Origin: a virus
Lineage: Duplodnaviria > Caudoviricetes
Length of the DNA: 38,900 nt
Virus record (IMG/VR): IMGVR_UViG_3300044477_000126
Location: 1 to 38,900 of that record
Direction: 5' to 3' (one strand)
This document shows, piece by piece, positions 1,749 through 38,872 of this stretch. Each line of letters opens with the position of its first letter. The stretch's first letter is position 1. The position numbers and the translations under genes were made by a program. The notes beneath the pieces were generated by a model that made no database searches, was not told the origin of the DNA, and saw nothing but the letters and a program-made list of their open reading frames with translations.

Positions 1749-3269
1749 TTATTTAAAAGCTATTATTTTTTCATCGTCACTGAGCAAGTTTAAGTTATAT
1801 TTGCAGTGTCCTTTAATTTCATACTTATTGTTTCCAGTGAGTTTGTTTGACAAATTATAAGAGTCAACAAGCTCTTTTATTGTTATATCCCACATTATGC
1901 CTTTCCAACTTCTAATTGTAGTTCTTATTTCTAATACATTTTTTTCTCTCATATAATTTTGTATATTTCTACTGCTTTGAGGCATTATATTATTCATCTT
2001 ACAATATTCCTTATAAAACATTATAAACTCATTTTTAGGTACTGTTTCGCAATCATTTGTAATATGACAATAATCTTCTACAAAACTTAATATATTATCA
2101 TTTTGTTTTTTATAAAGAATCACATTGTTGTCTGTTTTTTCTGATGTAGTAAACTTAAATCCATTTTCTATTAATCTATATAACCCAACCATTGACCAAT
2201 TTATAACTTTTTCAAGTTCTTCAGTTATTATCATTTTTGATAATCCATCAATTTTTTTTATTAGTTTTTTATCACAACTTATAACAAGCAATCTTCTTAA
2301 AAAGCCTATTGTTTTGTCTGATGTTTGTGGAAGTTTGTTGCAAGAAAAGGTTATCTTTGCTTTGTTTAAAAAGTTGAATGGATTTGAGTATAGTTCTTTT
2401 GCTTCGATAGAATCTTCTCCAGTAAGTTGTTTTATTAAACTACTATCTTTTATATAAGAGTCTGAAATATCACCACATACATTCATAGCTTTTCCAAATA
2501 ATCTTGCTGCATATTCTTGTCTGCTTAACCTTGATAGATCTACAGATGAAACAAATTCTTCGTCAAATATAGATGAAATTATCCTTATAAGAGTACCTTT
2601 TCCATTCTCTCCTTCGCCGTTAAATACACAAAATTTTTGAGCACCCATATAATTACTAAGACAATAACCAATCCACTCCTGTAGCGTTGGAATATCTTCA
2701 GGATAAAAGCTGTCTGATAAATATTTTTCAAATTTTGTTCCTTTTATACTTGAACTATTTATATTGTAGTTTGACTGAACTTGTCTTGTACTTAGAAACT
2801 TATCTGAATGTTCTTCTAATTGTTTTGTTTTCAGGTTAAACATTCCATTTCTAAAATTAATATAATCATCATCTTTATTTATTTCGTTTGGATTTATGCT
2901 GTTTTCTATCTTTATTATATTTATAACCTTGATAGGATTTTTATCTATATTTGGATCTTTTACATTCATTAACTTCATTATATCGCTTTTAAAATCATAC
3001 TTTTCATATATTCCCTTTTCAGTATTATATTTATAAATGTTTTCAGTTCCTGATATTGATATAATTTTTTGTTTTTTAAAAAACTTATCATAAAATATTT
3101 TTGGGAAAAAACTTATTATATAATTTTCACCTGAATTCTTATCTACACTCCATCTGTAATGCTGTGTATTTTCTGCTGTAACAGATGTAAGTTTTGAATA
3201 AATTTTTTCAGCTTCAATTTCACTTTCCATATTTATATTAAATTCTTCTAATAACAATTCTCTAAACAT
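1749..3269 (-). CDS. D5/P4-family SF3 replicative helicase (D5_N plus ATPase; no evident primase domain)
   Basis: YINFRNGMFNL (D5_N), Walker A GEGENGKGT, IKQLTGEDSIEA, CNKLP, GFLRRL. Confidence 0.9.
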   Translation of the reverse strand: MFRELLLEEFNINMESEIEAEKIYSKLTSVTAENTQHYRWSVDKNSGENYIISFFPKIFYDKFFKKQKIISISGTENIYKYNTEKGIYEKYDFKSDIMKLMNVKDPNIDKNPIKVINIIKIENSINPNEINKDDDYINFRNGMFNLKTKQLEEHSDKFLSTRQVQSNYNINSSSIKGTKFEKYLSDSFYPEDIPTLQEWIGYCLSNYMGAQKFCVFNGEGENGKGTLIRIISSIFDEEFVSSVDLSRLSRQEYAARLFGKAMNVCGDISDSYIKDSSLIKQLTGEDSIEAKELYSNPFNFLNKAKITFSCNKLPQTSDKTIGFLRRLLVISCDKKLIKKIDGLSKMIITEELEKVINWSMVGLYRLIENGFKFTTSEKTDNNVILYKKQNDNILSFVEDYCHITNDCETVPKNEFIMFYKEYCKMNNIMPQSSRNIQNYMREKNVLEIRTTIRSWKGIMWDITIKELVDSYNLSNKLTGNNKYEIKGHCKYNLNLLSDDEKIIAFK

Positions 3270-3602: not shown

Positions 3603-5696
3603 ATGAAATATATTTTTAAGAACAGTGAATACAATTTTGTTAAAAGAAACAATTATAAATCAGACTGGAATTTTTATGATTCAACAAATCTCTTTAAAGA
3701 AAGAATAACAATTGCATCAAAGGACGAGATAAGAATTATTGAAGACATAATAATAATTGGAAATGAAAAACAAAATCATGATAGAAAGATAATATTTGTT
3801 GATACTCAAGAAATTAATGAAAATTCTCTTGAATATCAAATATTAATACTCTCAGACGTAAAAGGAATTAGTTCAAGCAAAGCTTCATCAATAATGAGTG
3901 ATAATGGATTTTCTACAGTAAAAGAATTATTAGAAGCTCTAAAAAACGGAAAGAAAATAAATGGAATAGGAAATAAAAGAAAGCAATTAATAGAAAGACA
4001 ACTTGAAGAAGAAATAAACAAAAGAGATTTTTATAATATAATACTTTTGCTTGATAGTAGAAATATGGCTCAAAAGTTAATAAAAGAATTTGGCGAATGT
4101 GCAATGGAGAAAATAAAATTATTTCCATATGAAACGCTCAAGCCACTGATTGGATTTAAGAAGACAGATGAAATTTGCATAAATAAGTTTAATATAGATT
4201 TAAATGATGAAACAAGAATTAAGTATTTAATAGAATATAAGTTTAATGAATTTAATTCTAAACAAAGTAATTACATTGAACTAAACGACTTTACTAAATA
4301 TTTATTAGAAAATAAAATAAATTGTTCAGTAGAGTCTATATTGAAAAATGATTTGCTATATGTTGAAAATGAAAATGTTTATTTAAAAGAAGTATATAAT
4401 GCTGAAATAAAAAGTGCAAAAATTTTATCAAAAAGTTTTTATAGAGAACTAAATAATAATATACAAGATATTATAGAAGAATATGAAGACAGAAATTACC
4501 AATTACATGAAACACAAAAAGAAGCTGTAAAAGTTCTATTTAAAGAGCCATTATCAATTCTTACTGGTGGAGCTGGAACAGGAAAAACTACAGTTACAAA
4601 GTGTGCGATTGAATGTTTAGAATCACATGGATATGAATGCATACTATTAGCACCAACAGGAAAAGCAGCATTAAGAATGAGAGAGGTTACAAATAGACAA
4701 GCTAGAACAATTCATTCTTTAACTTACATTTTAGAATCTGATGAAGATCTTGATGGAGATTATTTTTTTGATAAGTTTAAATGTAGCATAAACAGTAAAA
4801 AGATTTTAATTGTAGATGAATTTAGTATGGTCGATCAAATATTATTTTATAGATTGCTTAGGTTAATAATTGAAAAAGAGCTTAATATAATAAAAGTAAT
4901 AATGATTGGTGATCCTTATCAATTACAATCTGTTGGTTCTGGAAAAGTATTAAGTGATTTGCTTGAATCAAACAAAATAAAACATGTAAAATTAACAAAA
5001 ACATTTAGACAGCAGGAAGGAAATGTAATAATACAAGAGTCTACAAATGTTAGAAATGCTTTGCCTGTAAATGTAGAACTTAAAACAAATGAATTTTTTG
5101 TTAAGGAGTTTAGCGAACAATTACTAGATACTTTAATTGCAAAAATTAGACCAAAATTTTTATCTGATGTAGATTTTTATAGAAATGTACAAATAACAAC
5201 ATCTCTTAATAAAACATGTGATGTTATAAATGAAAAATTTAGAAGAGATAATAAAAATAGATTTGCTGTAAATGATAAAGTAATAAATTTAAAAAATGAT
5301 TCTGATAGGGGAATTGTAAATGGAGATTTTGGAATAGTTCAATCCATAAGAGAAGAACAAATAACAGACAAGAAAAAAACAGAAATAACAACTGTATATT
5401 TTTATGATTCTGAAAGAATTGTTGAGTTTACTAAAGGAGAATACAGCCAAATTAAGCTTGCATATGCAACTACTGTTCATAAATTACAAGGTTCAGAATA
5501 TGAGTATATTATAATAATTATAGATAAAGACAACCCTATTTTAAATCATAAACTTTTATATACAGCGATTACAAGAGGTAAAAAGCATGTTATAATATTA
5601 GGAGAAAAGGAAATAATTAACAAAGCAGCAACTAGAAAACAAGATTGGTTAAGAAAGACAACTTTTAAAGAAAAATTAATTCAAGAATTTAACTAA
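3603..5696 (+). CDS. recD2: RecD2-like SF1B helicase with N-terminal HhH region
   Basis: TGGAGTGKT, LLAPTGKAA, IVDEFSMVD, IGDPYQLQSVG, AYATTVHKLQGSE, LYTAITRGK. Confidence 0.92.
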   Translation: MKYIFKNSEYNFVKRNNYKSDWNFYDSTNLFKERITIASKDEIRIIEDIIIIGNEKQNHDRKIIFVDTQEINENSLEYQILILSDVKGISSSKASSIMSDNGFSTVKELLEALKNGKKINGIGNKRKQLIERQLEEEINKRDFYNIILLLDSRNMAQKLIKEFGECAMEKIKLFPYETLKPLIGFKKTDEICINKFNIDLNDETRIKYLIEYKFNEFNSKQSNYIELNDFTKYLLENKINCSVESILKNDLLYVENENVYLKEVYNAEIKSAKILSKSFYRELNNNIQDIIEEYEDRNYQLHETQKEAVKVLFKEPLSILTGGAGTGKTTVTKCAIECLESHGYECILLAPTGKAALRMREVTNRQARTIHSLTYILESDEDLDGDYFFDKFKCSINSKKILIVDEFSMVDQILFYRLLRLIIEKELNIIKVIMIGDPYQLQSVGSGKVLSDLLESNKIKHVKLTKTFRQQEGNVIIQESTNVRNALPVNVELKTNEFFVKEFSEQLLDTLIAKIRPKFLSDVDFYRNVQITTSLNKTCDVINEKFRRDNKNRFAVNDKVINLKNDSDRGIVNGDFGIVQSIREEQITDKKKTEITTVYFYDSERIVEFTKGEYSQIKLAYATTVHKLQGSEYEYIIIIIDKDNPILNHKLLYTAITRGKKHVIILGEKEIINKAATRKQDWLRKTTFKEKLIQEFN

Positions 5697-5722
5697 ACAG
5701 CTAAAAACTAGCTGTTTTTTTT
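5695..5722 (+). terminator. Intrinsic terminator after recD2
   Basis: AAACAGCTA-AAAAC-TAGCTGTTT followed by T run. Confidence 0.85.
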
Positions 5723-5726
5723 ATTA

Positions 5727-5997
5727 TTTTAGACACTTTAGACGTTTCGACATTTTCAAAAAGTAAAAACGTCTAAGAAAAAATCCTTATTCTAGAGGGT
5801 TTAGACGCAATTAGACACTTTAGACGTTTTTTTTTGAAACATTTCCTTACACACGTATATATCTTTTTATATATACGTATAAAACTTTTAAATAAAAGTG
5901 TCTAAAGTGTCTAAAGCGTCGAGTAGTATTCATTTTACTATGTTTGAAGGTTAGACGTTTTTATTTTTCAATTTTGCAAAACGTCTAAAGTGTCTAG
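5727..5997. other. Putative replication origin (P4/PICI-type iterons)
   Basis: About 6 TTAGAC(A/G)Y and 5 inverted copies around the AT-rich dyad ACGTATATA...TATATACGT (5853-5878); non-coding. Confidence 0.7.
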
Positions 5998-6319
5998 TAT
6001 TTTTTTACAATTGATATTTTATAATTATTATAGTAAATATTTGTTATTTATTGACCAAACACGAAATATCTCTATTTGATGAAGATAAAACTCAAATGAT
6101 ATCAATTATGATTGATAAAGATTAAACTTGTTCTATATGCCTTAAATTGATTCTGAGGTATATATAAATTGTATTGCTTCATCAATAATGAAATATATTG
6201 AGTTGAGAAGCTATTAAATAAGTATGTTAAAAATTATTGAATTGTGGCAATGAATTTGTCTTTATTAAAAACGCACAAGCGATAAAATATAAATATAATT
6301 TGAAAAGGAGAAAATAAAA

Positions 6320-6706
6320 ATGTTTTACTGGGAAAATGAAATTGAAATTAGTGATTTATTAGGAAAGACAATTATAGATTTTAAATATAGTGATGAAACT
6401 GAAATTTTAACAATAAAATGTGAGTGTGGTAGTATTTATGAGATGCACCATGACCAGGAATGTTGTGAAAATGTTTATCTTTATGACATAATAGGAGAAG
6501 TTAAAGATATTCTGAATAGTGAAATTTTAATGGCTGAAGAAGAAACAAGCTATGATAAAAACGAAGAAATAGATTGTTATCAAGATGAAAGTTTTACTTG
6601 GACATTTTATAAGATTGGAACAGTAAAAGGATATGTGACTCTTAGATGGTTTGGTTCAAGTAATGGATACTATGGAGAACGGGTTGATTTTGTTAAGATA
6701 CAATAA
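6320..6706 (+). CDS. Conserved phage hypothetical protein
   Basis: MHHDQECCENV...TWTFYKIGTVKGYVTLRWFGSSNGYY, a motif I recognise from many phages; AAGGAG RBS. Confidence 0.8.
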   Translation: MFYWENEIEISDLLGKTIIDFKYSDETEILTIKCECGSIYEMHHDQECCENVYLYDIIGEVKDILNSEILMAEEETSYDKNEEIDCYQDESFTWTFYKIGTVKGYVTLRWFGSSNGYYGERVDFVKIQ

Positions 6707-7164
6707 AATATTGAACAATTTTAGGAATTAGGGTAAAATATAATTAATCCTTGTTATGAACTTGAAAGCATTTAAATATTGATAATTGATAATTATTCAT
6801 GATGTTAAAATAAAGCATATTCTCCAAATTGTGCTTTATTTTTTTTGTTTATTTTTATTGATTTGTGATATAATTAAAGGGTCGTTACAATTATCTAGTG
6901 CAATTTAATTTTAAAGATTTTTTGATGGATAAAAAAGGAACTAAGTTTATTAATAAAAAATATTCTTATGTTTCTTTTTTTGTTGAAAAAATGTATAATT
7001 AATATATTCAAATTAGAAAATATACTAAAAATTTAATATTGCATATAGTTTAACATTTGCAGAAAAACACTAGATAATCCGATTTCTAGTGTTTTTTGTT
7101 TGGAAAATTATAATAAAATGATATAATTATGTTAGATAGTTAATTTTTGAAATGAGGTGATAAG

Positions 7165-7923
7165 ATGGAAAAAAGAGATAAAAAGAGTAAAAGAAGTGAT
7201 GATGAGTGGTTCGAGATAGTAGGGCAACAACTAGACTCTGGAATGAAGCCTTCTGACTTTTGCAAAATGTACGGAGTAGAATATAAAACATTTATTAAAG
7301 CAAGAGCAAGAGTAAAAGCAAAAGTTGAAATAGAAAAAAGTTTAAAAATGGGAACAAGCTTTCTAGATAAAATACAAAATATGGAGAAAGAACCACCTAC
7401 CAATATTTCTAATAAAATACAAAATATGGATAATATTGATTTTAAGGAATTAAGCGGAAAAGATATCGTAAATGATTTGAGCGGTACTGGACAAGGAAAT
7501 AACTTTGATAAGCTGTTAGGCGCTGATGATTGTGTTGAGGTGATGACTAATACAATCATTCGAAAAACTCAATATGTTCTGGATCATGAACTAAATAAAA
7601 TGTTCAATATGATGGGGCAAGAGAGAGAACTAAAACAAATTAACGTAAATAAATTAAAGGATTTATCTGTGTCTGTGCTTAGAACTGTCTATCAGAACGA
7701 CATTCAGAAAAGAAGGCTTGAACTTGAAATAATTAGGTCAAATATGGATGCGGAAAAATTATTGATCGAAAAGGAAAAATTAAAATTAGATATAGAAAAG
7801 CTGCAATTAGAGAAAATGAAGCTAGGTTTAATTAAAGATGAATCACAGACAAACGATAACGGGTTTGTAGAGGCATTAAAACAACAAGAGGATATTTGGG
7901 ACGATGAAGAAAATGCTGAATAA
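7165..7923 (+). CDS. Probable terminase small subunit
   Basis: N-terminal HTH-like segment, coiled coil, C-terminal DNGFVEALK...IWDDE typical of TerS upstream of PBSX TerL. Confidence 0.65.
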   Translation: MEKRDKKSKRSDDEWFEIVGQQLDSGMKPSDFCKMYGVEYKTFIKARARVKAKVEIEKSLKMGTSFLDKIQNMEKEPPTNISNKIQNMDNIDFKELSGKDIVNDLSGTGQGNNFDKLLGADDCVEVMTNTIIRKTQYVLDHELNKMFNMMGQERELKQINVNKLKDLSVSVLRTVYQNDIQKRRLELEIIRSNMDAEKLLIEKEKLKLDIEKLQLEKMKLGLIKDESQTNDNGFVEALKQQEDIWDDEENAE

Positions 7924-7951
7924 AATTTTTATAAAATAATGGAGGTATAAA

Positions 7952-8200
7952 ATGTTAAATAAAGTTACGGAAAAAGGAATAAGAGATCAAATAGTTAAGA
8001 CTGAATATTTTGTAGTTGGATTAAAAACTACAATTTGTTGTTTAACTTTAAAAAATGGTTTCGAAGTGATTGGGTTTTCTTCTTGTGTGGATCCAAATAA
8101 TTTTAATAAACAAATTGGTGAAGATATCGCATATGAAAATGCTTTTAACAAGATTTGGGAGCTTGAAGGATATAAGTTACAAAGCGAGTTATGTTTTTAG
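7952..8200 (+). CDS. Gp49-family phage protein
   Basis: TTICCLTLKNGFEVIGFSSCVDPNNFNKQIGEDIA...IWELEGYKL signature. Confidence 0.85.
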   Translation: MLNKVTEKGIRDQIVKTEYFVVGLKTTICCLTLKNGFEVIGFSSCVDPNNFNKQIGEDIAYENAFNKIWELEGYKLQSELCF

Positions 8201-8466
8201 GATTAAGGAAAGCAGATGAAAAAAATATAATAAAAATTTTGGCGTCTAGAATGGCATGGTATAATAAGGAAATAGATAAGAAGTTGCTTGATGATCTGAG
8301 TAGATATAGTTATATTGAAAGAAGTAGGGAAATTGCACAGATTGCAATGGAGGCTGACATATTTGAACAGGTTATTATTGATGCAGATAAAATATATAAA
8401 TGTTGTAGAAATAGAAATTTAGGCTTTATGATTCTTGGCAATGAGGTGATAAAATTAGATGAATAG
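8191..8466 (+). CDS. Hypothetical protein
   Basis: 91 aa; overlaps both neighbours. Confidence 0.6.
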   Translation: MFLGLRKADEKNIIKILASRMAWYNKEIDKKLLDDLSRYSYIERSREIAQIAMEADIFEQVIIDADKIYKCCRNRNLGFMILGNEVIKLDE

Positions 8467-9721
8467 AAGAATACAAAAATCTAATTTTAAATTTAAACAG
8501 TTTAGTCTTAAGCAGAAAAAAGTGTTGACGTGGTGGCACTATAAAAGCCAGTATGACGGAATAATTTGCGATGGTGCGATAAGGGCAGGTAAAACAGTTT
8601 CTTTAGCTGTAAGTTTTGTTATTTGGGCAATGAGTACATTCAGAGATAATAACTTTGCTATGTGTGGAAAAACTGTGGGAAGCTTTAAGAGAAATGTTTG
8701 GATGTGGTTAAAGCAGGCATTAATAAGTTTTGGGTATCAGATTCACGAGATTAGAAACGAGAACCTTGCAACAATTACCTTTAATGAAGTGTCTAATATA
8801 TTCTTCTTTTTCGGTGGAAGAGATGAATCAAGTCAGGACTTAATTCAAGGGCTTACATTGTCAGGCATACTATTTGATGAGGTTGCTTTAATGCCTGAAT
8901 CTTTCGTTAACCAAGCTACTGGTAGGTGTTCTGTGGAAGGCAGTAAATTTTGGTTTAACTGTAATCCAGATTCTCCTAAGCACTGGTTTAAAACCGATTG
9001 GATAGATAAGTGTAAAGAAAAAAACATGTTGAAGCTTCATTTTACAATGGAAGACAATCTAACTTTATCTGAATCAATAAAGGAACGATATAGATTGCGA
9101 TACTCTGGGTTATTCTATAAACGCTTTATATTAGGGCTATGGGTTGTTGCAGACGGCATAATCTATGATATGTTCTCTGAATCAAAACATGTTGTTAAAA
9201 CAGAAAATAGAGACTATACAGAGTATTATATATCTTGCGACTATGGAACTTATAACCCTTGTGTTTTTGGAATGTATGGGAAGCTAAGAGATAAGTGGTA
9301 TAAGATAGATGAATATTATTTTTCTGGCAGAGAAGCTGAGAGACAAAAAACAGATAAAGAGTATGCGGATGATTTAGTTAATTTTGCAAAAGGCAAAATA
9401 ATAAGAGGTATAGTTGTAGACCCTTCTGCATCTAGTTTTATTGCAGAGTTAAAGACTAGACAAATTGCTAAAATATATAAAGCAAAAAATGATGTTGATG
9501 AAGGCATAAAAAATTATTCAACTGTATTAAATAAAGGTGATTTATTATTTAATGACTGTTGTAAGAATTCTTTTAAGGAATTTGCATCATATTGTTGGGA
9601 TGAGAAGGCAAGTTTAAAAGGACAAGATAAGCCTTTGAAGATTAACGATCATACTAAAGATGAAGAAAGATATTTCGTAAACACAATAATGTTTGGAAGA
9701 GAAATTAAGTTTATGAGATAA
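8459..9721 (+). CDS. terL: Terminase large subunit, PBSX family
   Basis: DGAIRAGKT, FDEVAL, FNCNP, CDYGTYNP, VDPSASSF, NDHTKD. Confidence 0.95.
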   Translation: MNRRIQKSNFKFKQFSLKQKKVLTWWHYKSQYDGIICDGAIRAGKTVSLAVSFVIWAMSTFRDNNFAMCGKTVGSFKRNVWMWLKQALISFGYQIHEIRNENLATITFNEVSNIFFFFGGRDESSQDLIQGLTLSGILFDEVALMPESFVNQATGRCSVEGSKFWFNCNPDSPKHWFKTDWIDKCKEKNMLKLHFTMEDNLTLSESIKERYRLRYSGLFYKRFILGLWVVADGIIYDMFSESKHVVKTENRDYTEYYISCDYGTYNPCVFGMYGKLRDKWYKIDEYYFSGREAERQKTDKEYADDLVNFAKGKIIRGIVVDPSASSFIAELKTRQIAKIYKAKNDVDEGIKNYSTVLNKGDLLFNDCCKNSFKEFASYCWDEKASLKGQDKPLKINDHTKDEERYFVNTIMFGREIKFMR

Positions 9722-9948
9722 TGAGGAATAAAATGGATATATTAAAGGCTTTACTTTGGACATTTGTAATATATTTTTCTTTTTTAATTATATTTAAGTT
9801 TTTTACAAATTTTAATGATAATATTAATTATAGAAATGTAGCAAGCAGCACAATTGTAACAGCTAGTGTAGTTACAGGAAGCTTTGTAAGTGTTGATGAT
9901 ACACTAAAAAAGGTTGTGTATGGCTGCGAAAATAATAAAATACAGTAG
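9721..9948 (+). CDS. Small membrane protein inserted between terL and portal
   Basis: Hydrophobic N-terminal helix; TAATG coupling to terL. Confidence 0.55.
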   Translation: MRNKMDILKALLWTFVIYFSFLIIFKFFTNFNDNINYRNVASSTIVTASVVTGSFVSVDDTLKKVVYGCENNKIQ

Positions 9949-9959
9949 GAGGAAAAACA

Positions 9960-11477
9960 ATGTATGTGTATGACTTAGATTTGCTCAAAATGCAGTTAAA
10001 TGCAAATAAAGCAGTAACAGACTCAGAAGTAATAAGCGAAATTATACAAAGTGATCTTATTTCTGCATCCAAGAAAAATATGGAAGATGGCGAAAATTAC
10101 TATTGCTCAAATAATTCTGCTATTTACGAAAGAGTCTTTGAGTATTATAGTCAAGGCAGAAATGTAAAGGATGAATTTAGAGCTAATAATAAGCTTCCTC
10201 ACGGTTTTCTTAAAACACTTATAGACCAAAAAGTAAACTATTCTTTAAGTAAACCAATTACACTAAATAATGCTGACAACATAAAGCAGGTTTTAGATAT
10301 CAATGAATTTATTAGGGATGTTGGTAAGCAGGCTTGCAAAAAGGCTTTTGGATGGTTACATATATTTATAAATGAAAATAACGAGCTAGAAACAAAGGTT
10401 ATAGATTCAGAGGAAATAATACCAATATTTGACACAAGATATCAAGATGAGTTAATTCAAATTATTAGATATTATACATTTACAGTTATAAACGATAAGG
10501 GAACTAAAATAAATAGATACAAGGTTGAGCAATGGACAGCAAAAGAAGTTACTTTTTATGAACAGGACTTAGAGGGAAATTTTGTTTTAGACAGCATGGT
10601 AGAAATAAATCCAGCACCGCATTGGATGATTAACAATTATAGCTTAGGAGAATTGACATATAAAGAAGATCATAGTTGGGGAAAAGTTCCTTTTATACCA
10701 CTTTTCAATAATGACGAGAAATTGACAGACTTAGTACCTATAAAAGCCTTTATTGACTGTTATGATAAGAATATAAGTGACTTTTCTAACAATATTGAAG
10801 ACTTGCAAGAAGCAATTATAAAATTGATAAATTATGGTGGAATGACTGATAGACTTGAGGAATTCTTAGTGTATGTAAAAAAATATAAGGTATTGCCTTT
10901 AGACGATGAGGGCAACGCTGAGTATATGAAGAACGAAATACCATTTGAAGCACGTCTTAAGCTTAAAGAATCGCTTAGAGAGAGTATTTTTGAGTTTGGA
11001 CAAGGCGTTGACAGCAACAAGGTTGGAGATGGAAATATAACCAATATTGTTATAACAAATAGGTATACACAATTAGATCTGAAAGCGAATGATTTTGAAC
11101 TAAACGTTACAAAATTTCTCAAAAAAGTTTTTTGGTTTGCTAATGAATTCTTAAAATTTAGAAATATGCAACAAGATGATATTAAACTAATTGAAATAAT
11201 TTACAATAGAAGTTTGGTAATTAATAATTTAGAAATTGTAGATATGTGTCAAAAATCTGCAGGAATTATAAGTAATAAAACAATTATATCTAATCATCCT
11301 TGGGTTTCTGATGTTGAAGATGAACTGACTCAAATGGAGACAGAAAAAGAAGCAGAAAGAGAAATATATTTCAATACACAACAAGAAAATATGACTATGC
11401 AAGAATCGAAAAATGTCGAAAATGTGGATAACTCTGTGGATAACTCAGACAATGAAATGAGTGATAGTGTTGAATAA
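9960..11477 (+). CDS. Portal protein, SPP1 gp6-like
   Basis: NNKLPHGFLKTLIDQKVNY, GKVPFIPLFNN, IDCYD, ISNKTIISNHPWV; position after terL. Confidence 0.93.
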   Translation: MYVYDLDLLKMQLNANKAVTDSEVISEIIQSDLISASKKNMEDGENYYCSNNSAIYERVFEYYSQGRNVKDEFRANNKLPHGFLKTLIDQKVNYSLSKPITLNNADNIKQVLDINEFIRDVGKQACKKAFGWLHIFINENNELETKVIDSEEIIPIFDTRYQDELIQIIRYYTFTVINDKGTKINRYKVEQWTAKEVTFYEQDLEGNFVLDSMVEINPAPHWMINNYSLGELTYKEDHSWGKVPFIPLFNNDEKLTDLVPIKAFIDCYDKNISDFSNNIEDLQEAIIKLINYGGMTDRLEEFLVYVKKYKVLPLDDEGNAEYMKNEIPFEARLKLKESLRESIFEFGQGVDSNKVGDGNITNIVITNRYTQLDLKANDFELNVTKFLKKVFWFANEFLKFRNMQQDDIKLIEIIYNRSLVINNLEIVDMCQKSAGIISNKTIISNHPWVSDVEDELTQMETEKEAEREIYFNTQQENMTMQESKNVENVDNSVDNSDNEMSDSVE

Positions 11478-12261
11478 TTATGAAACTGAAATGCAGAATA
11501 GAAACATACAAAGTTTTGACGAACTTCATCAAGGGATAAATAATGATTTGTCAGCTTCATTTATAAAATTTGCAGCAGCAGGATTGTTAACTTATGACAT
11601 TATGAAGAAATATGATAGATTGTCTAAACTTGAAGAAAAATTATTTAAATATGTAAATAATTTATTTAATGAGCAAAATTTATTATTACTTGCTTTGCTC
11701 AAGAAAAATTATAAGGATAATTATTTGAGTGAAGCTAAGAAACTTGTAAAACTTGCTGAAAAAGAAATTGAGATTGCAATAATTGAAGCTAAAAAAATGA
11801 TTGAAGATATTAATTTACCAATATCAGGATTAACAATTAAAGACAGAATAAACAAGAATAAGCAAGATACTTTTTTGAAAATAAAAGAAATTATTACAGC
11901 AGCACTAATTAGAGGAACAGATTTAAAGCAGTTAGACAAAGAGATTCTAAAGGCTCTTAAAACATCTGAATATAAGCAGAATAGAATTATACAAACTGAA
12001 ATGAATAGAGTCGAAAACATGGCAATAAATGAGGTATACAAACAAGCTGAAAAAACAGGATTAAAGTTTAAAAAAATGTGGGTAGCTACAATGGATAAAA
12101 AAGTAAGAGATGCTCACAAAACATTAAATGGTAAATATGCGGATAAAGATGGATATTTTCATTTTAATGGATATAAAGCTGAATTTCCTGGGGGATTTGG
12201 GGTAGCAAGTTTAGATATAAATTGTAGATGTAAAACTAGGGCTGTATTTGAGAATAATTGA
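11461..12261 (+). CDS. Minor head protein (SPP1 gp7/Mu gpF-like)
   Basis: RIIQTEMNR, KKMWVATMDKKVRDAH, INCRC. Confidence 0.88.
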   Translation: MIVLNNYETEMQNRNIQSFDELHQGINNDLSASFIKFAAAGLLTYDIMKKYDRLSKLEEKLFKYVNNLFNEQNLLLLALLKKNYKDNYLSEAKKLVKLAEKEIEIAIIEAKKMIEDINLPISGLTIKDRINKNKQDTFLKIKEIITAALIRGTDLKQLDKEILKALKTSEYKQNRIIQTEMNRVENMAINEVYKQAEKTGLKFKKMWVATMDKKVRDAHKTLNGKYADKDGYFHFNGYKAEFPGGFGVASLDINCRCKTRAVFENN

Positions 12262-15754: not shown

Positions 15755-16338
15755 TGAGTGTTCCAAGAATCACAGAAATTTTAGAAAAAGGGTTAAATTC
15801 TTCAGGCAGTTTTAGTTTGGGTTCTTCAACTAATTTTATTGGTAGAAGTGGAGCGGTATGCTTTAAAGCTACTGCAAACTTTACTAGACCTTCTAATACT
15901 ATTCAATATAGTTTGAATGATGCGATTACAAATAGCACATCCGCACCAGCTATAATGAGTTTTGATTTGGCTAGTTTTGGGGCTGTAGTTGGTCAATTTT
16001 TCTGCATAACAAATGCTAGAATTGTAAGTAGTGTAAAACCAACATCAGCTCAATTATCAGCGAATTTATGGGTATTTATGAATACCTTTACAGCAACAAA
16101 TGACAATGCGGAATTAAGTATCGATGATGCTACAGCACAAAGTGGAGGTATAGTAATACCTTGTGGAAATGGTTATCAAACGGCTTTGAATCATAGATGT
16201 TTGAGTGATAGTGGACAATGGATAGGAAAATTGGCAAGTGCTGATACTAAATTATATTTCACATTGCAAGATGCAGGAGCATATACACCACAGGCGGATG
16301 AACGGTTTGATGTTGTGATAGAGGGGATGTTACTGTGA
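15751..16338 (+). CDS. Hypothetical virion-associated beta protein
   Basis: 195 aa; FTRPSNTIQYSLNDAI...AGAYTP; overlaps neighbours. Confidence 0.65.
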   Translation: MMSVPRITEILEKGLNSSGSFSLGSSTNFIGRSGAVCFKATANFTRPSNTIQYSLNDAITNSTSAPAIMSFDLASFGAVVGQFFCITNARIVSSVKPTSAQLSANLWVFMNTFTATNDNAELSIDDATAQSGGIVIPCGNGYQTALNHRCLSDSGQWIGKLASADTKLYFTLQDAGAYTPQADERFDVVIEGMLL

Positions 16339-17360
16339 TTAATCCAGTTTTGAATCGAACTCAAAAAGCTTTGAAACCTATTCTACTACCTTGTGATGCT
16401 GGACTTTTTGATTTTAGTGTGACTGGATGCCCTGTAAAATGGGTATTTCCAGACGGTCGTATTAGTATTGCAAGCAGACCAGCGTTTACTTTAGCAAATG
16501 CTGGAACCGTTAAGCTTTATTCTAAAAAAATTAATGGAAGTACTGTACAGGTTAATGACAACGGAACAGATGCAAGATTTAAAGGTAAACTTAAAAATTT
16601 GCAAGGTAAATTAACTTATTCTTTAAGTTTAGATAGTTGTACTCAGGCAACTGGTAGTTTAGCTGATTTGCAAGGTAAATTAACTGCTACTTTAAACTTA
16701 TATAATTGTGCTCAAATAACAGGTAGTTTAGCTGATTTGCAAGGTAAATTAACTGCTACTTTAAACTTATATAATTGTGCTCAAATAACAGGTAGTTTAG
16801 CTGATTTGCAAGGTAAAATAACTGCTAATTTAAACTTATATAATTGTGCTCAAATAACAGGTAGTTTAGCTGATTTGCAAGGTAAATTAACTTATCTTTT
16901 GAATTTGGGCAATTGTGCTCAAATAATAGGTAGTTTAGCTGATTTGCAAGGTAAATTAACTTATTCTTTAGACTTGAGTAATTGTGCTCAAATAATAGGT
17001 AGTTTAGCTGATTTGCAAGGTAAATTAACTTCTACTTTAAGCTTATATAACTGTGTTCAGGTAACAGGTAGTTTAGCTGATTTACAAGGTAAAATAACTT
17101 ACTTATTAGATTTGAGTAATTGCACACAAATAACAGGTATATACACACCCATTAGTACGGGAATACCAACGATAACACGTCTATCAAACACAGGGTTAAC
17201 AACAAACGACATGGACCAAACACTAATAAACTATGCAACAACAACAAAAAACAACGGAACATTTACAGCAACAGGAAAAACAAGGTCAGCAACATCAGAC
17301 GCAGCAGTAACAACTTTACAAGGTCGAGGATGGTCAATAACAGGATTTACAGTAGTTTAG
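16335..17360 (+). CDS. Leucine-rich-repeat protein (about 8 x 23 aa)
   Basis: Repeat GSLADLQGKLTxxLxLxNCAQIT matches the LxxLxLxxC LRR pattern. Confidence 0.85.
   Translation: MINPVLNRTQKALKPILLPCDAGLFDFSVTGCPVKWVFPDGRISIASRPAFTLANAGTVKLYSKKINGSTVQVNDNGTDARFKGKLKNLQGKLTYSLSLDSCTQATGSLADLQGKLTATLNLYNCAQITGSLADLQGKLTATLNLYNCAQITGSLADLQGKITANLNLYNCAQITGSLADLQGKLTYLLNLGNCAQIIGSLADLQGKLTYSLDLSNCAQIIGSLADLQGKLTSTLSLYNCVQVTGSLADLQGKITYLLDLSNCTQITGIYTPISTGIPTITRLSNTGLTTNDMDQTLINYATTTKNNGTFTATGKTRSATSDAAVTTLQGRGWSITGFTVV
16596..17138 (+). repeat. 69-bp coding tandem repeat (LRR units)
   Basis: GGTAGTTTAGCTGATTT(G/A)CAAGGTAAA recurs every 69 bp. Confidence 0.9.
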
Positions 17361-33738: not shown

Positions 33739-33792
33739 AATAACATTCTCCTTTAAGTTTTATTTTTTTGTTTTGCTCGTTTCTATATTCTT

Positions 33793-33830
33793 ATTATATA
33801 AAAAGTGCTTACATATGTCAACACTTTTTT
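33793..33830 (-). promoter_or_regulatory. Consensus sigmaA promoter with overlapping inverted repeat (copy 1)
   Basis: TTGACA (33816-33821), N17, TATAAT (33793-33798). Confidence 0.9.
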
Positions 33831-33839
33831 AAAATTAAT

Positions 33840-34472
33840 TTATCTATATCTTTGTGATAATTCTAATACTGCTGTTACTTCTGCATTATATAAATTATTA
33901 AAATTGTCTATTATATCTTTTAAATAATTGTAATCATTATAAAAGTCAGAGTTTATAAAAATATCTGTATATTTATCATAGAATTTTATGGCTAATTTTA
34001 CTTCTTCTAATGTTGTCTCAACATAATTTATATTTCTATCATACTGTTTTATAAGTTCAGTATATTTTTCATTGTCATGTCTTCTTACTAATTGTCTATA
34101 TTTTCTGCTTATAGCATCATAAAAAACATGTAAGCTTTTAAAGTCTTTTCTTTCTTCATCAAATGTAACTGGTCTTAGTTTTGTACTATCATATACATTA
34201 TTGCTAATCTCTCTAAAAGCTTCAGAGCTACTCATCTTTTCTACATTGACTAGATAGTTAAAAGCATCTCCACCTCTGCAACATTGTGTAAAGCTGCTAT
34301 ATGTATTAGTCTCATGAAAATAAACAAAATGCCACTTTTTACCGTTACAACAGGGACATTGTTTAAATCTTATTACTCTTTTACCTCTTATATTTTGTTC
34401 TTTTCTTTCTCCAAGAATACGATCTGCAAAATTATAATTTAAAATTGCTTCCTTAAATTGTATATTATCCAT
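33840..34472 (-). CDS. Primase-type Zn-binding (CHC2-like) protein without TOPRIM
   Basis: CPCC...H...CCRGGDAFNYLVNVEKMSSSEA; remainder helical. Confidence 0.7.
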   Translation of the reverse strand: MDNIQFKEAILNYNFADRILGERKEQNIRGKRVIRFKQCPCCNGKKWHFVYFHETNTYSSFTQCCRGGDAFNYLVNVEKMSSSEAFREISNNVYDSTKLRPVTFDEERKDFKSLHVFYDAISRKYRQLVRRHDNEKYTELIKQYDRNINYVETTLEEVKLAIKFYDKYTDIFINSDFYNDYNYLKDIIDNFNNLYNAEVTAVLELSQRYR

Positions 34473-34684: not shown

Positions 34685-34718
34685 ATATTATAATAAGTGC
34701 TTACATTTGTCAACACTT
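34685..34718 (-). promoter_or_regulatory. Related promoter/operator (copy 2)
   Basis: AAGTGTTGACAAATGTAAGCACTT on the minus strand; TTGACA at 34708-34713. Confidence 0.75.
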
Positions 34719-34887
34719 ATTTGTTTTATAAATAATCGTTTTTACCAGTTGTAAAATTGATTTTAGGCTGACTAACTGTAATATATTTCTATCTGATGAA
34801 GATATACAAGTTCTAAATATCTACAAATATTCTTTTATTTGTAATCTCAAATTGTTTTATATATTTTTACATTTTAATTAATTTGTG

Positions 34888-35262
34888 TTGTGACACGCTT
34901 GTGATAAAAAGCTTGTGTTGTGACAGATTTCTTTGTGACAGATTTTGTGTTGTGACAATATTCTTGTGACAGTTTCCAAATTTCTTTGTGACAATTTCCA
35001 ATTATGCTTGTGACGTTTTCCATATTTTTGTGTTGTGACAGATTTCTTTGTGACAGATTTCTTTGTGACAATATTCATTGTGACGCTTTTTTCTTCTACA
35101 TGTAGAAAGAAATTGAACATGATTCTTTGTGACAATATTCATTGTGACACTTTTTTGTGTTGTGACAAGAATTTTTGTGTTGTGACAATTTCCAATTTTT
35201 CTTGTGACAACTGGAAACGTCACAAAGAATTTTCTTGTGTTGTGACAACTTTCTTTGTGACA
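34888..35262 (+). repeat. Polarized TTGTGAC(A/G) box array
   Basis: 18 direct copies, one TTGTGAT, one inverted copy (35218-35225); palindrome TTCTACATGTAGAA at 35094-35107. Confidence 0.95.
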
Positions 35263-35270
35263 AATAAAAA

Positions 35271-35300
35271 AATACCCTAGAATTTTACATCTAGAGTATT
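35271..35300 (-). terminator. Terminator after the 420-aa membrane protein gene
   Basis: Minus strand AATACTCTAG...CTAGGGTATT followed by T run. Confidence 0.6.
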
Positions 35301-35306
35301 GTAAAA

Positions 35307-36569
35307 TCATTTCCAAAACGTTCCATTTGATTTCCTTTCTAACTTTCCTTGACCTTCAAAGAAATCATAAACTTTTCCAACTTCTCGTTCTGGGACTGCT
35401 AAAATTCCTGATAATTTTCTTTGACCTGGCAATTTTTTATTTCCATTTTCTCGTTCAAATTCTAGATACTCAATTACTTTTTTATTTAAAGTGTTTGTTA
35501 GTTCTTTTACAGTTTTTTCTTTTGTTATTTTTTGTTTTATTGGTAAAAATTCCTCTTGTGTAATTATTTCAGTTGAAGTAAAAGATGGGATAGTATTTTC
35601 CAATTTTTTAGGTTCAATTTTTTCTTCTTTGATTTCTAATGAGGCTTTTTTAGTTTTTTTATCTTCATCAAATATAAGTGAGTTAAAGTTTTCTGCTTCC
35701 AGATCTGTTTTGTTATTTGATGAAGAATCTTTTAAACTATCTGGTTCAAATTCTTGGAGTGGGGGAGTGGTACTGTTCGCTTTTTTCTTTGCATCAATAT
35801 AAAATCCTATTCCAGTTAGTTCCAAAACCAAAGAAAATATAAAAAATACTGTTTTCTTATTCTCTTCTGTACCAAATACCGAACTCATACCATCTTCAAC
35901 TTTTAGATTTAAAGTACTCAAATCTTTCTTGTTTTCTTCATTCACAACAATTTCTTGACCTTGTACCTTCAGCAACTCATCTCTCTTATTTTTAATTTGT
36001 TGATCATATTCAGACCTTTTATTATTTATTTCTGTGTTTAATTTTGCCTTAACATCTAGATAAGACTTTGGATAACTATCTCTAGTTTTAACTAAGTCAT
36101 TTACTGCAGCTGTTTTAGAATTTTCTAAGTCTGTTATTTGCTTATTAATCGTTTCAATTGTCTTATCCTTATTTCCTTTTAACTCAATTGCCTTTTCTCT
36201 TGCCTCTTTGCCTTCTAGATCTTTTTGTGCCTGTTTATACTCAATAGAGTTTTTCTTCATGCTGTTTTCTTGCTTATTAGCTTGATTTACGCTAAATACT
36301 AAACTTGCAGTAATAGAAATGCCAAACAGCATCAATGCAAGAATAGCACAATATACACGCCAACCCATTCTTTTACCATAAAATATTTCATGAGAAAAGT
36401 AATATTTCCCCATTTCAGTTGGTATTGCATAGATACAAAATACTAACTTTGCCCAAAATTCGTATCCTTGGCTTTGCATTAAAGCTATTGTAAATGTCGC
36501 ACTTGCAAAAAAACAGAGAAAAGACATATAATTAGATAGAGTTAATTTTTTAATATTGTATTTTTTCAT
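35307..36569 (-). CDS. Four-TM, coiled-coil membrane protein with C-terminal GntR-like winged HTH
   Basis: 3 hydrophobic helices (aa ~11-94), coiled coil, 4th helix TVFFIFSLVLELTGIGFYI, C-terminal KLPGQRKLSGILAVPEREVGKVYDFFEGQGKLERKSNGTF. Confidence 0.8.
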   Translation of the reverse strand: MKKYNIKKLTLSNYMSFLCFFASATFTIALMQSQGYEFWAKLVFCIYAIPTEMGKYYFSHEIFYGKRMGWRVYCAILALMLFGISITASLVFSVNQANKQENSMKKNSIEYKQAQKDLEGKEAREKAIELKGNKDKTIETINKQITDLENSKTAAVNDLVKTRDSYPKSYLDVKAKLNTEINNKRSEYDQQIKNKRDELLKVQGQEIVVNEENKKDLSTLNLKVEDGMSSVFGTEENKKTVFFIFSLVLELTGIGFYIDAKKKANSTTPPLQEFEPDSLKDSSSNNKTDLEAENFNSLIFDEDKKTKKASLEIKEEKIEPKKLENTIPSFTSTEIITQEEFLPIKQKITKEKTVKELTNTLNKKVIEYLEFERENGNKKLPGQRKLSGILAVPEREVGKVYDFFEGQGKLERKSNGTFWK

Positions 36570-36595: not shown

Positions 36596-36629
36596 TAAAA
36601 GCTGTATTCAGTTTAGAATACAGCTTTTA
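36596..36629 (-). terminator. Hairpin upstream of the membrane protein gene
   Basis: TAAAAGCTGTATTC-AGTTTA-GAATACAGCTTTTA perfect stem. Confidence 0.7.
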
Positions 36630-38509: not shown

Positions 38510-38547
38510 ATTATATAAAAAGTGCTTACATATGTCAACACTTTTTT
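38510..38547 (-). promoter_or_regulatory. Consensus sigmaA promoter with overlapping inverted repeat (copy 3)
   Basis: TTGACA (38533-38538), N17, TATAAT (38510-38515); core identical to 33793-33830. Confidence 0.9.
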
Positions 38548-38751
38548 TGAAACTTTTTTAATAAATTTCTTATTGCTTATTTTTAGATAATAATGTATAA
38601 TTACTTTATTGCAATAATTACAGTAAATAGTTAATTTATTTCTTAAATATTTTGAGCAGGTGAAGTAGTACTAAATAAAGCTATAAGGCGTTGAGTAAGT
38701 GTCTTATAGCTTTTATTGTTGTGTATAGAGTTCTTTTACTTCATCAAATAG

Positions 38752-38872
38752 AAATATTCTAGGTCTGGCCAGCTAAATATTCTAGGTCTGGCCAGCTAAA
38801 TATTCTAGGTCTGGCCAGCTAAATATTCTAGGTCTGGCCAGCTAAATATTCTAGGTCTGGCCAGCTAAATAT
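38752..38872. repeat. 23-bp tandem repeat x5 (second copy of 30-127)
   Basis: Units at 38752, 38775, 38798, 38821 and 38844. Confidence 0.97.

Follow-up and report, generated by a model that had tools for sequence, protein, structure and literature searches.

The gene for a protein of 420 amino acids, predicted to be anchored in the membrane, and the polarized array of short DNA boxes that begins directly behind it form a real, conserved module of an unnamed protein family. We describe this module in the phage record IMGVR_UViG_3300044477_000126 (38.9 kb, GC ~28%), whose whole stretch of 38,900 nucleotides is hereafter called the window, and in relatives of the gene. Based on these loci, we consider it quite probable that the protein binds its cognate boxes and thereby tethers DNA in some way. 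As to its purpose, we favor, on balance, the maintenance or positioning of an unintegrated phage genome, perhaps in a plasmid-like prophage state, which would make the module a one-protein centromere-anchor system.

The window encodes terminase, an SPP1-type portal, capsid, tail and amidase proteins, a D5-type primase-helicase, a RecD-like helicase, ERF and ERCC4, as annotated with Pfam and PHROG for 32 ORFs and then for 8 more. The best matches of the terminase are in Bacillus-group phages (58-61%), and the primase matches those of Streptococcus phages (~30%). In IMG/VR the record is labeled as linear and 60% complete. The opening bases of the window reappear at position 38723 (an overlap of 178 nt, with one 23-bp unit extra), and identical contigs of 264 and 16,585 nt from run X1 map to both of its ends. 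These findings make a closed circle, joined at a 23-bp tandem repeat, the most likely form of the window. This repeat is perfect, is present in four to five copies (38752-38872 and 30-127), and is intergenic, iteron-sized and located at the circle closure. The array region is reproduced letter for letter in the contigs of run X1, which is probably the source sample and hence not independent, and run X2 contains, at low depth, fragments of a related gene together with part of the array in rearranged form. None of the runs listed as holding the sequence is an RNA run. Two further observations concern the gene map. A promoter-like motif that includes an imperfect inverted repeat is present in near-identical form at 33790-33826, 34692-34721 and 38520-38545, upstream of three leftward gene blocks, and is a candidate early promoter or operator. 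The block of head genes encodes a 341-aa protein (16335-17360) with seven leucine-rich repeats of 23 aa, and a similar 69-bp repeat region is present in the related phage record G001.

Table 1. Positions in the window of the gene, its predicted protein parts, the box array and the origin-like element
Feature	Position	Strand	Remark
Polarized array of 18 TTGTGACR boxes	34888..35262	+	Irregularly spaced; apparently non-coding
Lone inverted box near the gene-proximal end of the array	35218..35225	-	Inverted copy there in the G001 array too
14-bp palindrome in the central gap of the array	35094..35107	.	Unique in the window; no identical copy in G001 or G059
Intrinsic-terminator-like hairpin closing the 420-aa gene	35271..35300	-	Array begins directly behind
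Gene of the 420-aa protein, predicted four-pass membrane/coiled-coil/winged-helix	35307..36569	-	ORF; unmatched in Pfam and PHROG
Membrane helices 1-3, aa 11-92, predicted	36294..36539	-	Conserved polar S23, E52, K55, S85
Long coiled-coil hairpin, aa 109-203, predicted outside the cytoplasmic membrane	35961..36245	-	AF2; side from positive-inside counts
Membrane helix 4, aa 235-258, predicted	35796..35867	-	E250 kept by 51 of the 53 proteins in the alignment
Disordered linker, aa 280-357	35499..35732	-	pLDDT <50
C-terminal winged helix, aa 359-420, GntR-like fold	35310..35495	-	AF2 model, structure superposition
14-bp inverted repeat just upstream of the 420-aa gene	36596..36629	.	Terminator or operator
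Origin-like element, A+T-rich core surrounded by 11 TAGACRY boxes of both orientations	5730..5996	.	Just behind the RecD-like helicase gene; outside the array module

An earlier note on this DNA had described 18 TTGTGAC(A/G) boxes in the same orientation within 375 bp, often 15 bp apart. The count holds, although one copy on the minus strand had been overlooked; the start-to-start interval is 15 bp in six of 17 cases and 14-49 bp in the others. Both the terminator of the gene, behind which the array had been placed, and the 14-bp palindrome in the array gap were recovered, the former as a terminator-like hairpin that runs from 35300 to 35271. The array spans +44 to +420 from the stop codon of the gene. 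In the rest of the 38.9 kb, TTGTGACR is absent from both strands, and none of 100 shuffled sequences reached the 19 copies observed (shuffle mean 1.97, maximum 6). The array-density score was likewise reached by none of 81 control windows of the same record. Arrays of this density (12 copies in 450 bp) are rare, since 673 kb of related-phage loci yielded only the array of G001 itself and one coding tandem. A likeness of the box to the sites of MatP, CRP, DnaA and P4-alpha was set aside as a presumed coincidence.

The layout that had been read from the protein sequence (hydrophobic helices, coiled coil, charged linker and C-terminal wHTH) was reproduced by structure prediction. The AF2 model, for which the input alignment consisted of the query and 50 of the 61 family representatives (11 fragments or tail-less proteins being left out), has a mean pLDDT of 82 and shows helices at aa 11-34, 38-64, 68-106 and 235-266, the hairpin at 109-203, disorder at 280-357 and a wHTH at 363-419 with a pLDDT of 93-95. 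A hydropathy scan called three of the four membrane helices and missed helix 2 because this helix carries E52 and K55. K+R residues average 1.7 at the N-terminus, 0.3 and 2.6 in loops 1 and 2, respectively, and 1.7 beyond helix 4. These values fit the positive-inside rule, and therefore support the predicted topology, also proposed earlier, in which the N-terminus is inside, the coiled coil outside and the wHTH in the cytoplasm. The assignment of the C-terminus to the GntR type stands with respect to its fold, but not to membership of the Pfam family. On the one hand, the predicted wHTH superposes on 4r1h_B (Z 9.6, rmsd 1.9, 62 aligned) and on the DNA-binding domains of YvoA, AraR and LutR (rmsd 1.8-2.0 over 62 columns, but with Foldseek E>0.1); on the other hand, neither the last 80 aa nor the entire protein matched Pfam GntR (PF00392) at E<=10. 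Unlike the GntR regulators, which are soluble proteins with an N-terminal wHTH and a C-terminal effector domain, the 420-aa protein has its wHTH last, behind the membrane helices. Fold searches with the membrane and coiled-coil part gave generic helical matches only. Atlas clusters that are unnamed and mostly viral score 0.92-0.94 by features, which provides a lead to a wider superfamily.

An exhaustive search at E<=1e-3 retrieved 61 representatives of the family. The profile of the C-terminal wHTH is matched by 52 of them, and 51 have the full layout of membrane helices plus C-terminal wHTH; it should be noted that this profile was built from eight loci, some of which are within the 61, and that most of the misses are short, probably truncated proteins. 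Of the 51 homologs with the full architecture, 46 were called with three N-terminal helices, and the length of the linker ranges from 40 to 163 aa across the family. Sub-threshold matches to DUF4407 (15.9-20 bits vs a gathering threshold of 31.3) were obtained for five of 55 homologs and for the G001 protein, and none for the window protein. Searches of INPHARED phages and PLSDB and two GTDB pattern scans gave no family match, viral scans with the window protein and with its close alignment were empty, and the family gene was found in none of 41 records reached via capsid, terminase or motif matches, most of which are fragments. A search of the open-access literature returned no description of the family.

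DNA was available for seven other independent homolog loci, L019 and L021 being duplicates of L018 that were counted once. The record G001 (31.9 kb, with terminal repeats) was found by terminase similarity and then matched by the family profile, and its array was noticed only afterwards. Its homolog, a genuine though remote family member (hhalign 98.7%, E 3e-16) of ~20% identity (19% by hhalign), is followed, directly past its terminator, by 17 exact copies of TCACTTAG at +46 to +460 from the stop codon, with a central stretch of variant boxes, and none of 62 G001 control windows reached the score of this array. Both arrays have the same polarity relative to the gene and an inverted copy near it, but they are made of different box words. 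The genes on the far side of the array also differ, AbrB-like in the window and a holin gene in G001, which suggests that the array travels with the membrane gene. In the record G059 (41.9 kb, CheckV 100%), no array was found downstream of the homolog gene; the boxes are inside the gene, which contains ACGCAA ten times without overlap on its sense strand, in all three frames, that strand being devoid of the word in the rest of the 41.9 kb. In a shuffle test with synonymous codons, 11 copies (one overlap counted) compare with 0.88 expected and place the gene first among 18. A coarser comparison by windows ranked 4 of 24 control windows above the gene, the top one being that of the origin-like array of G059. 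At L018, the linker region contains five copies of TTAAGCCTA, four of them in one frame, a weak cluster that is partly explained by a duplicated KPN peptide. At L020, L022, L023 and L024, no box cluster was detected in or after the gene on contigs of 3-12 kb, of which L022 ends 67 bp past the stop codon. With two clear, one weak and four negative loci among the seven, the view that homologs have adjacent arrays applies to the downstream array of G001 and the in-gene boxes of G059, and not to the majority of the loci.

The three clear words (window, G001 and G059) fit, in our reading, WCRCWW on the sense strand of the gene. The fact that related viruses pair the same gene with a different box sequence makes it likely that the protein grips its own boxes. 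The box word alone does not predict the gene, since a motif search for triple TTGTGACA gave 11 loci, none with the family gene nearby, and triple TCACWWAG was found at at least 121 loci, 80 of them with full flanks, the family gene being present, among those listed, only in G001 itself. Other loci from these searches carry boxes in a different setting. L007, L015 and L017 have three TTGTGACA boxes with 14-bp spacing upstream of a small-terminase-like gene, and no family gene there. An irregular, non-coding array of a 15-bp box containing CTCACTAAG is present at L183 (3501-3678), at L131 and L146 and at about ten similar loci, upstream of terminase genes of phages of ~50% GC and unrelated to the membrane-wHTH family.

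In the mechanism that we propose, the four helices would seat the protein in the host membrane, with the winged helix in the cytoplasm, where it would bind the boxes that follow its gene, holding the phage DNA at the membrane without a motor. Many copies of the protein would load onto the 19 boxes, resulting in a multivalent grip, and the flexible linker would tolerate their irregular spacing. Clustering of the protein, or its docking to a landmark in the envelope, may be the task of the outward coiled coil. The unintegrated phage circle would in this way be kept and placed during growth, division or sporulation.

Precedents for one-protein DNA-membrane anchors are RocS of S. pneumoniae and Par of pSK1 (PMC11500499) and RicO/ricS of S. 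aureus (10.64898/2026.03.06.710092), and the mechanism of such one-protein segregation systems is described as still open (PMC11500499). RocS, RicO, pSK1 Par and RacA-ram resemble the module in that a single protein, without an ATPase, combines a winged helix, a coiled coil and membrane contact, a tie between DNA and membrane having been proposed or shown; pSK1 Par and RacA also bind repeated sites. These proteins have an N-terminal MerR-type wHTH followed by the coiled coil, whereas the order is reversed in the window protein, whose N-terminus consists of membrane helices, and RocS, RicO and, by prediction, Par end in an amphipathic helix, whereas the modeled window protein ends in a beta-wing. 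Its anchor would also differ, being made of four predicted membrane helices, with the coiled coil predicted outside and a GntR-like wHTH, and its boxes, unlike the sites of the RocS group, are collected in a single polarized array linked to the gene, whose word changes from phage to phage. Pfam scans of the window protein and its homologs gave no match to DUF536.

Most likely, the system would work like RocS, RicO and pSK1 Par and be built more like Streptomyces SpdB2. SpdB2 has four predicted membrane helices and a coiled coil, forms pores, binds DNA and occurs on plasmids and phages, actinophages among them, but it has its coiled coil at the N-terminus, binds DNA without sequence specificity and acts together with TraB (PMC4447253). 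TraB with clt (PMC4447253) and FtsK with KOPS share with the module a C-terminal recognition domain on a membrane-anchored protein and polarized short boxes, and a polarized 8-bp repeat cluster near the gene is a trait common to TraB/clt and the window; unlike them, the window protein lacks the FtsK/SpoIIIE translocase domain. SpdA2/sps of pIJ101 is similar in that the sites lie inside or beside the gene of the DNA-binding protein itself and that segregational stability is affected, but SpdA2 is a protein of 135 aa with an N-terminal binding domain and 1-3 palindromes, compared with 10-23 direct boxes here, and the part of PMC4170104 considered describes no membrane anchor for it. If its function is that proposed above, the module would be a variant among the known motor-free DNA-membrane tethers. 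Phages are also known to encode membrane-associated, DNA-binding coiled-coil proteins with a single anchor, namely p16.7 of phi29, which binds non-specifically, and TubY of c-st, which works with TubZ.

How small temperate or carrier-state phages persist without an integrase or Par motors is an open question. Tyrosine or serine integrase, ParA, ParB, FtsK and tubulin had no match in the window record (G000), G001 and G059, with the positive controls matching, in agreement with the claimed absence of integrase, ParA and ParB from the window; this sets the module apart from TubY/TubZ and from the type I, II and III partition systems, which require ParA, a tubulin motor or ParB. The actin-like motor PF17989 also had no match, though no control genome passed the cut-off. 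Among near-complete relatives, which were chosen by virion genes and are at least 80% complete or circular (G059 and G017, found through the family, being excluded), the gene is present in none of seven integrase-positive and in two of four integrase-negative genomes (p=0.11, and p=0.3 without the window genome), so that a link of the gene to integrase-free genomes is suggestive only and not significant. The integrase-free, near-complete G011 and G032 are without the gene, and the phage of L018, whose homolog has the weak cluster only, encodes both a tyrosine and a serine integrase. The three clear cases are circular records, the window most likely so.

It is well known that partition genes usually adjoin replication-initiator genes. 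The family gene adjoins a replication initiator at four of the five remaining loci (L018, L020, L022 and L023), and these neighborhoods point to plasmid-type maintenance or transfer modules. L023 contains in addition iterons, an FtsK/SpoIIIE gene and a tyrosine recombinase gene. Its plasmid-like block at 4442-12205 comprises the membrane-wHTH gene, a small DNA-binding gene and the genes for Rep3 (with 22-bp iterons), FtsK/SpoIIIE and the tyrosine recombinase, and is reminiscent of Streptomyces-type transfer modules, here in a host of 27% GC. A cassette at L018 (6353-9224), located between the lysis genes and the integrase, consists of a second replication initiator, a divergent excisionase-like HTH gene and the membrane-wHTH gene, and possibly reflects a dual integrated and plasmid lifestyle. 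The plasmid-like contig L022 also encodes a 160-aa protein with HTH_17 and a coiled coil (981-1576), which we take to be RocS/Par-like and whose own gene holds ~12 GTTACA boxes in both orientations.

The array might be read by another protein, such as a helicase or primase at an origin, a terminase at a pac site or a host factor, with the neighboring gene being incidental. A CHC2 Zn-finger gene is located 400 bp from the array, and the short TTGTGACA triplets described above precede small-terminase-like genes in unrelated phages without the family gene. However, the window has a separate origin-like element, and the array is therefore probably not an origin bound by the helicase or the Zn-finger protein, the alternative raised in the earlier note. 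ATCTAAC boxes with the same layout lie directly behind the primase-helicase gene of G059, which thus has both an origin-like array and in-gene boxes; we presume this layout to be that of primase-helicase origins, and by analogy both elements would be origins. If the origin is elsewhere, the polarized array is available to a different reader; the sole neighbor common to all three clear cases is the membrane gene. Moreover, G001 has no BLASTP match to the helicase or the Zn-finger protein of the window, yet its array is at the same place by the membrane gene, and a pac site was rejected because the terminase genes are ~11 kb distant round the circle. A foreign reader is therefore highly improbable. 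The CHC2 gene (33840-34472) is also far from the D5-type primase-helicase gene (1749-3269), which suggests a split primase. We also consider it very unlikely that the protein is a membrane-bound one-component regulator that would follow the logic of ToxR and CadC, its coiled coil sensing the envelope and its winged helix controlling the next promoter via the array. The GntR-like fold would suit such a role, as would a sigma70-like promoter at 34713, 175 bp past the array and facing the AbrB-like and Zn-finger genes, and the G001 array likewise precedes a gene block; but an operator would be far smaller than 19-23 boxes over 400 bp, the genes downstream of the array differ between the phages, and the boxes of G059 are spread through coding sequence.

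Two other explanations retain the binding of the boxes and change its purpose. The protein could help to move DNA through a membrane or septum, either forming a pore in the manner of SpdB2 or serving as the detached recognition module of a TraB/FtsK-type pump of phage or host, in which case the array would be clt-like. Strict polarity is typical of translocase-loading sites, 8-mer boxes such as KOPS are known for TraB and FtsK, the four membrane helices carry the conserved charged residues E52, K55 and E250, and an FtsK/SpoIIIE gene lies downstream in L023. SpdB2 itself combines four helices, pores and DNA binding, and clusters of DUF2637, to which we assume SpdB2 to be linked, are under-the-bar structural neighbors of the window protein (TM 0.41 and 0.34). 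Against this, Pfam DUF2637 was matched by none of 55 homologs at E<=0.01, FtsK/SpoIIIE was found in none of the four phage records tested and at one of eight loci, three of these being short contigs, and the DNA binding of SpdB2 is non-specific; a role in DNA passage thus has a small but appreciable probability. Alternatively, the same tether might act in lytic growth only, organizing replicating or packaging DNA at the membrane in a way analogous to p16.7 of phi29. The window phage may indeed be purely lytic, as neither a repressor nor a plasmid-type Rep was identified in the window, which is also without a detected integrase; the gene is found among early and replication genes in the window and in G059, and the replication module has a D5-type primase-helicase with its own origin-like element. 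But p16.7, being sequence-nonspecific, does not need a dedicated array, and the family also occurs on the plasmid-like contigs L022 and L023, with virion genes absent from view, so that an exclusively lytic role seems rather unlikely.

Maintenance or positioning of the unintegrated genome remains the purpose that we prefer. More tentatively, and with considerable doubt, the module could represent a new, motor-free class of segregation systems, in which the coiled coil reads a landmark of the envelope, namely the division or sporulation septum, and the wHTH holds on to a polarized, rapidly changing centromere of its own, located within the gene or behind it. Integrase-free phages and plasmids of low-GC Gram-positive bacteria would by this means be inherited or enter the spore. 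The module may then represent, within the Firmicutes, a design that spans phyla and is related to SpdB2 and DUF2637. The module is a portable gene-plus-site cassette of 1.7 kb that comes in natural orthogonal variants, with three box words, and therefore binding, specificity swap, tethering and plasmid stabilization are directly testable. If verified, this would assign a function to an unannotated family and provide programmable DNA-to-membrane anchors. As a minor observation on the linker, that of the family member P0005 contains 15 GEV tripeptide repeats, which may mirror, at the protein level, an array of DNA boxes inside the gene.
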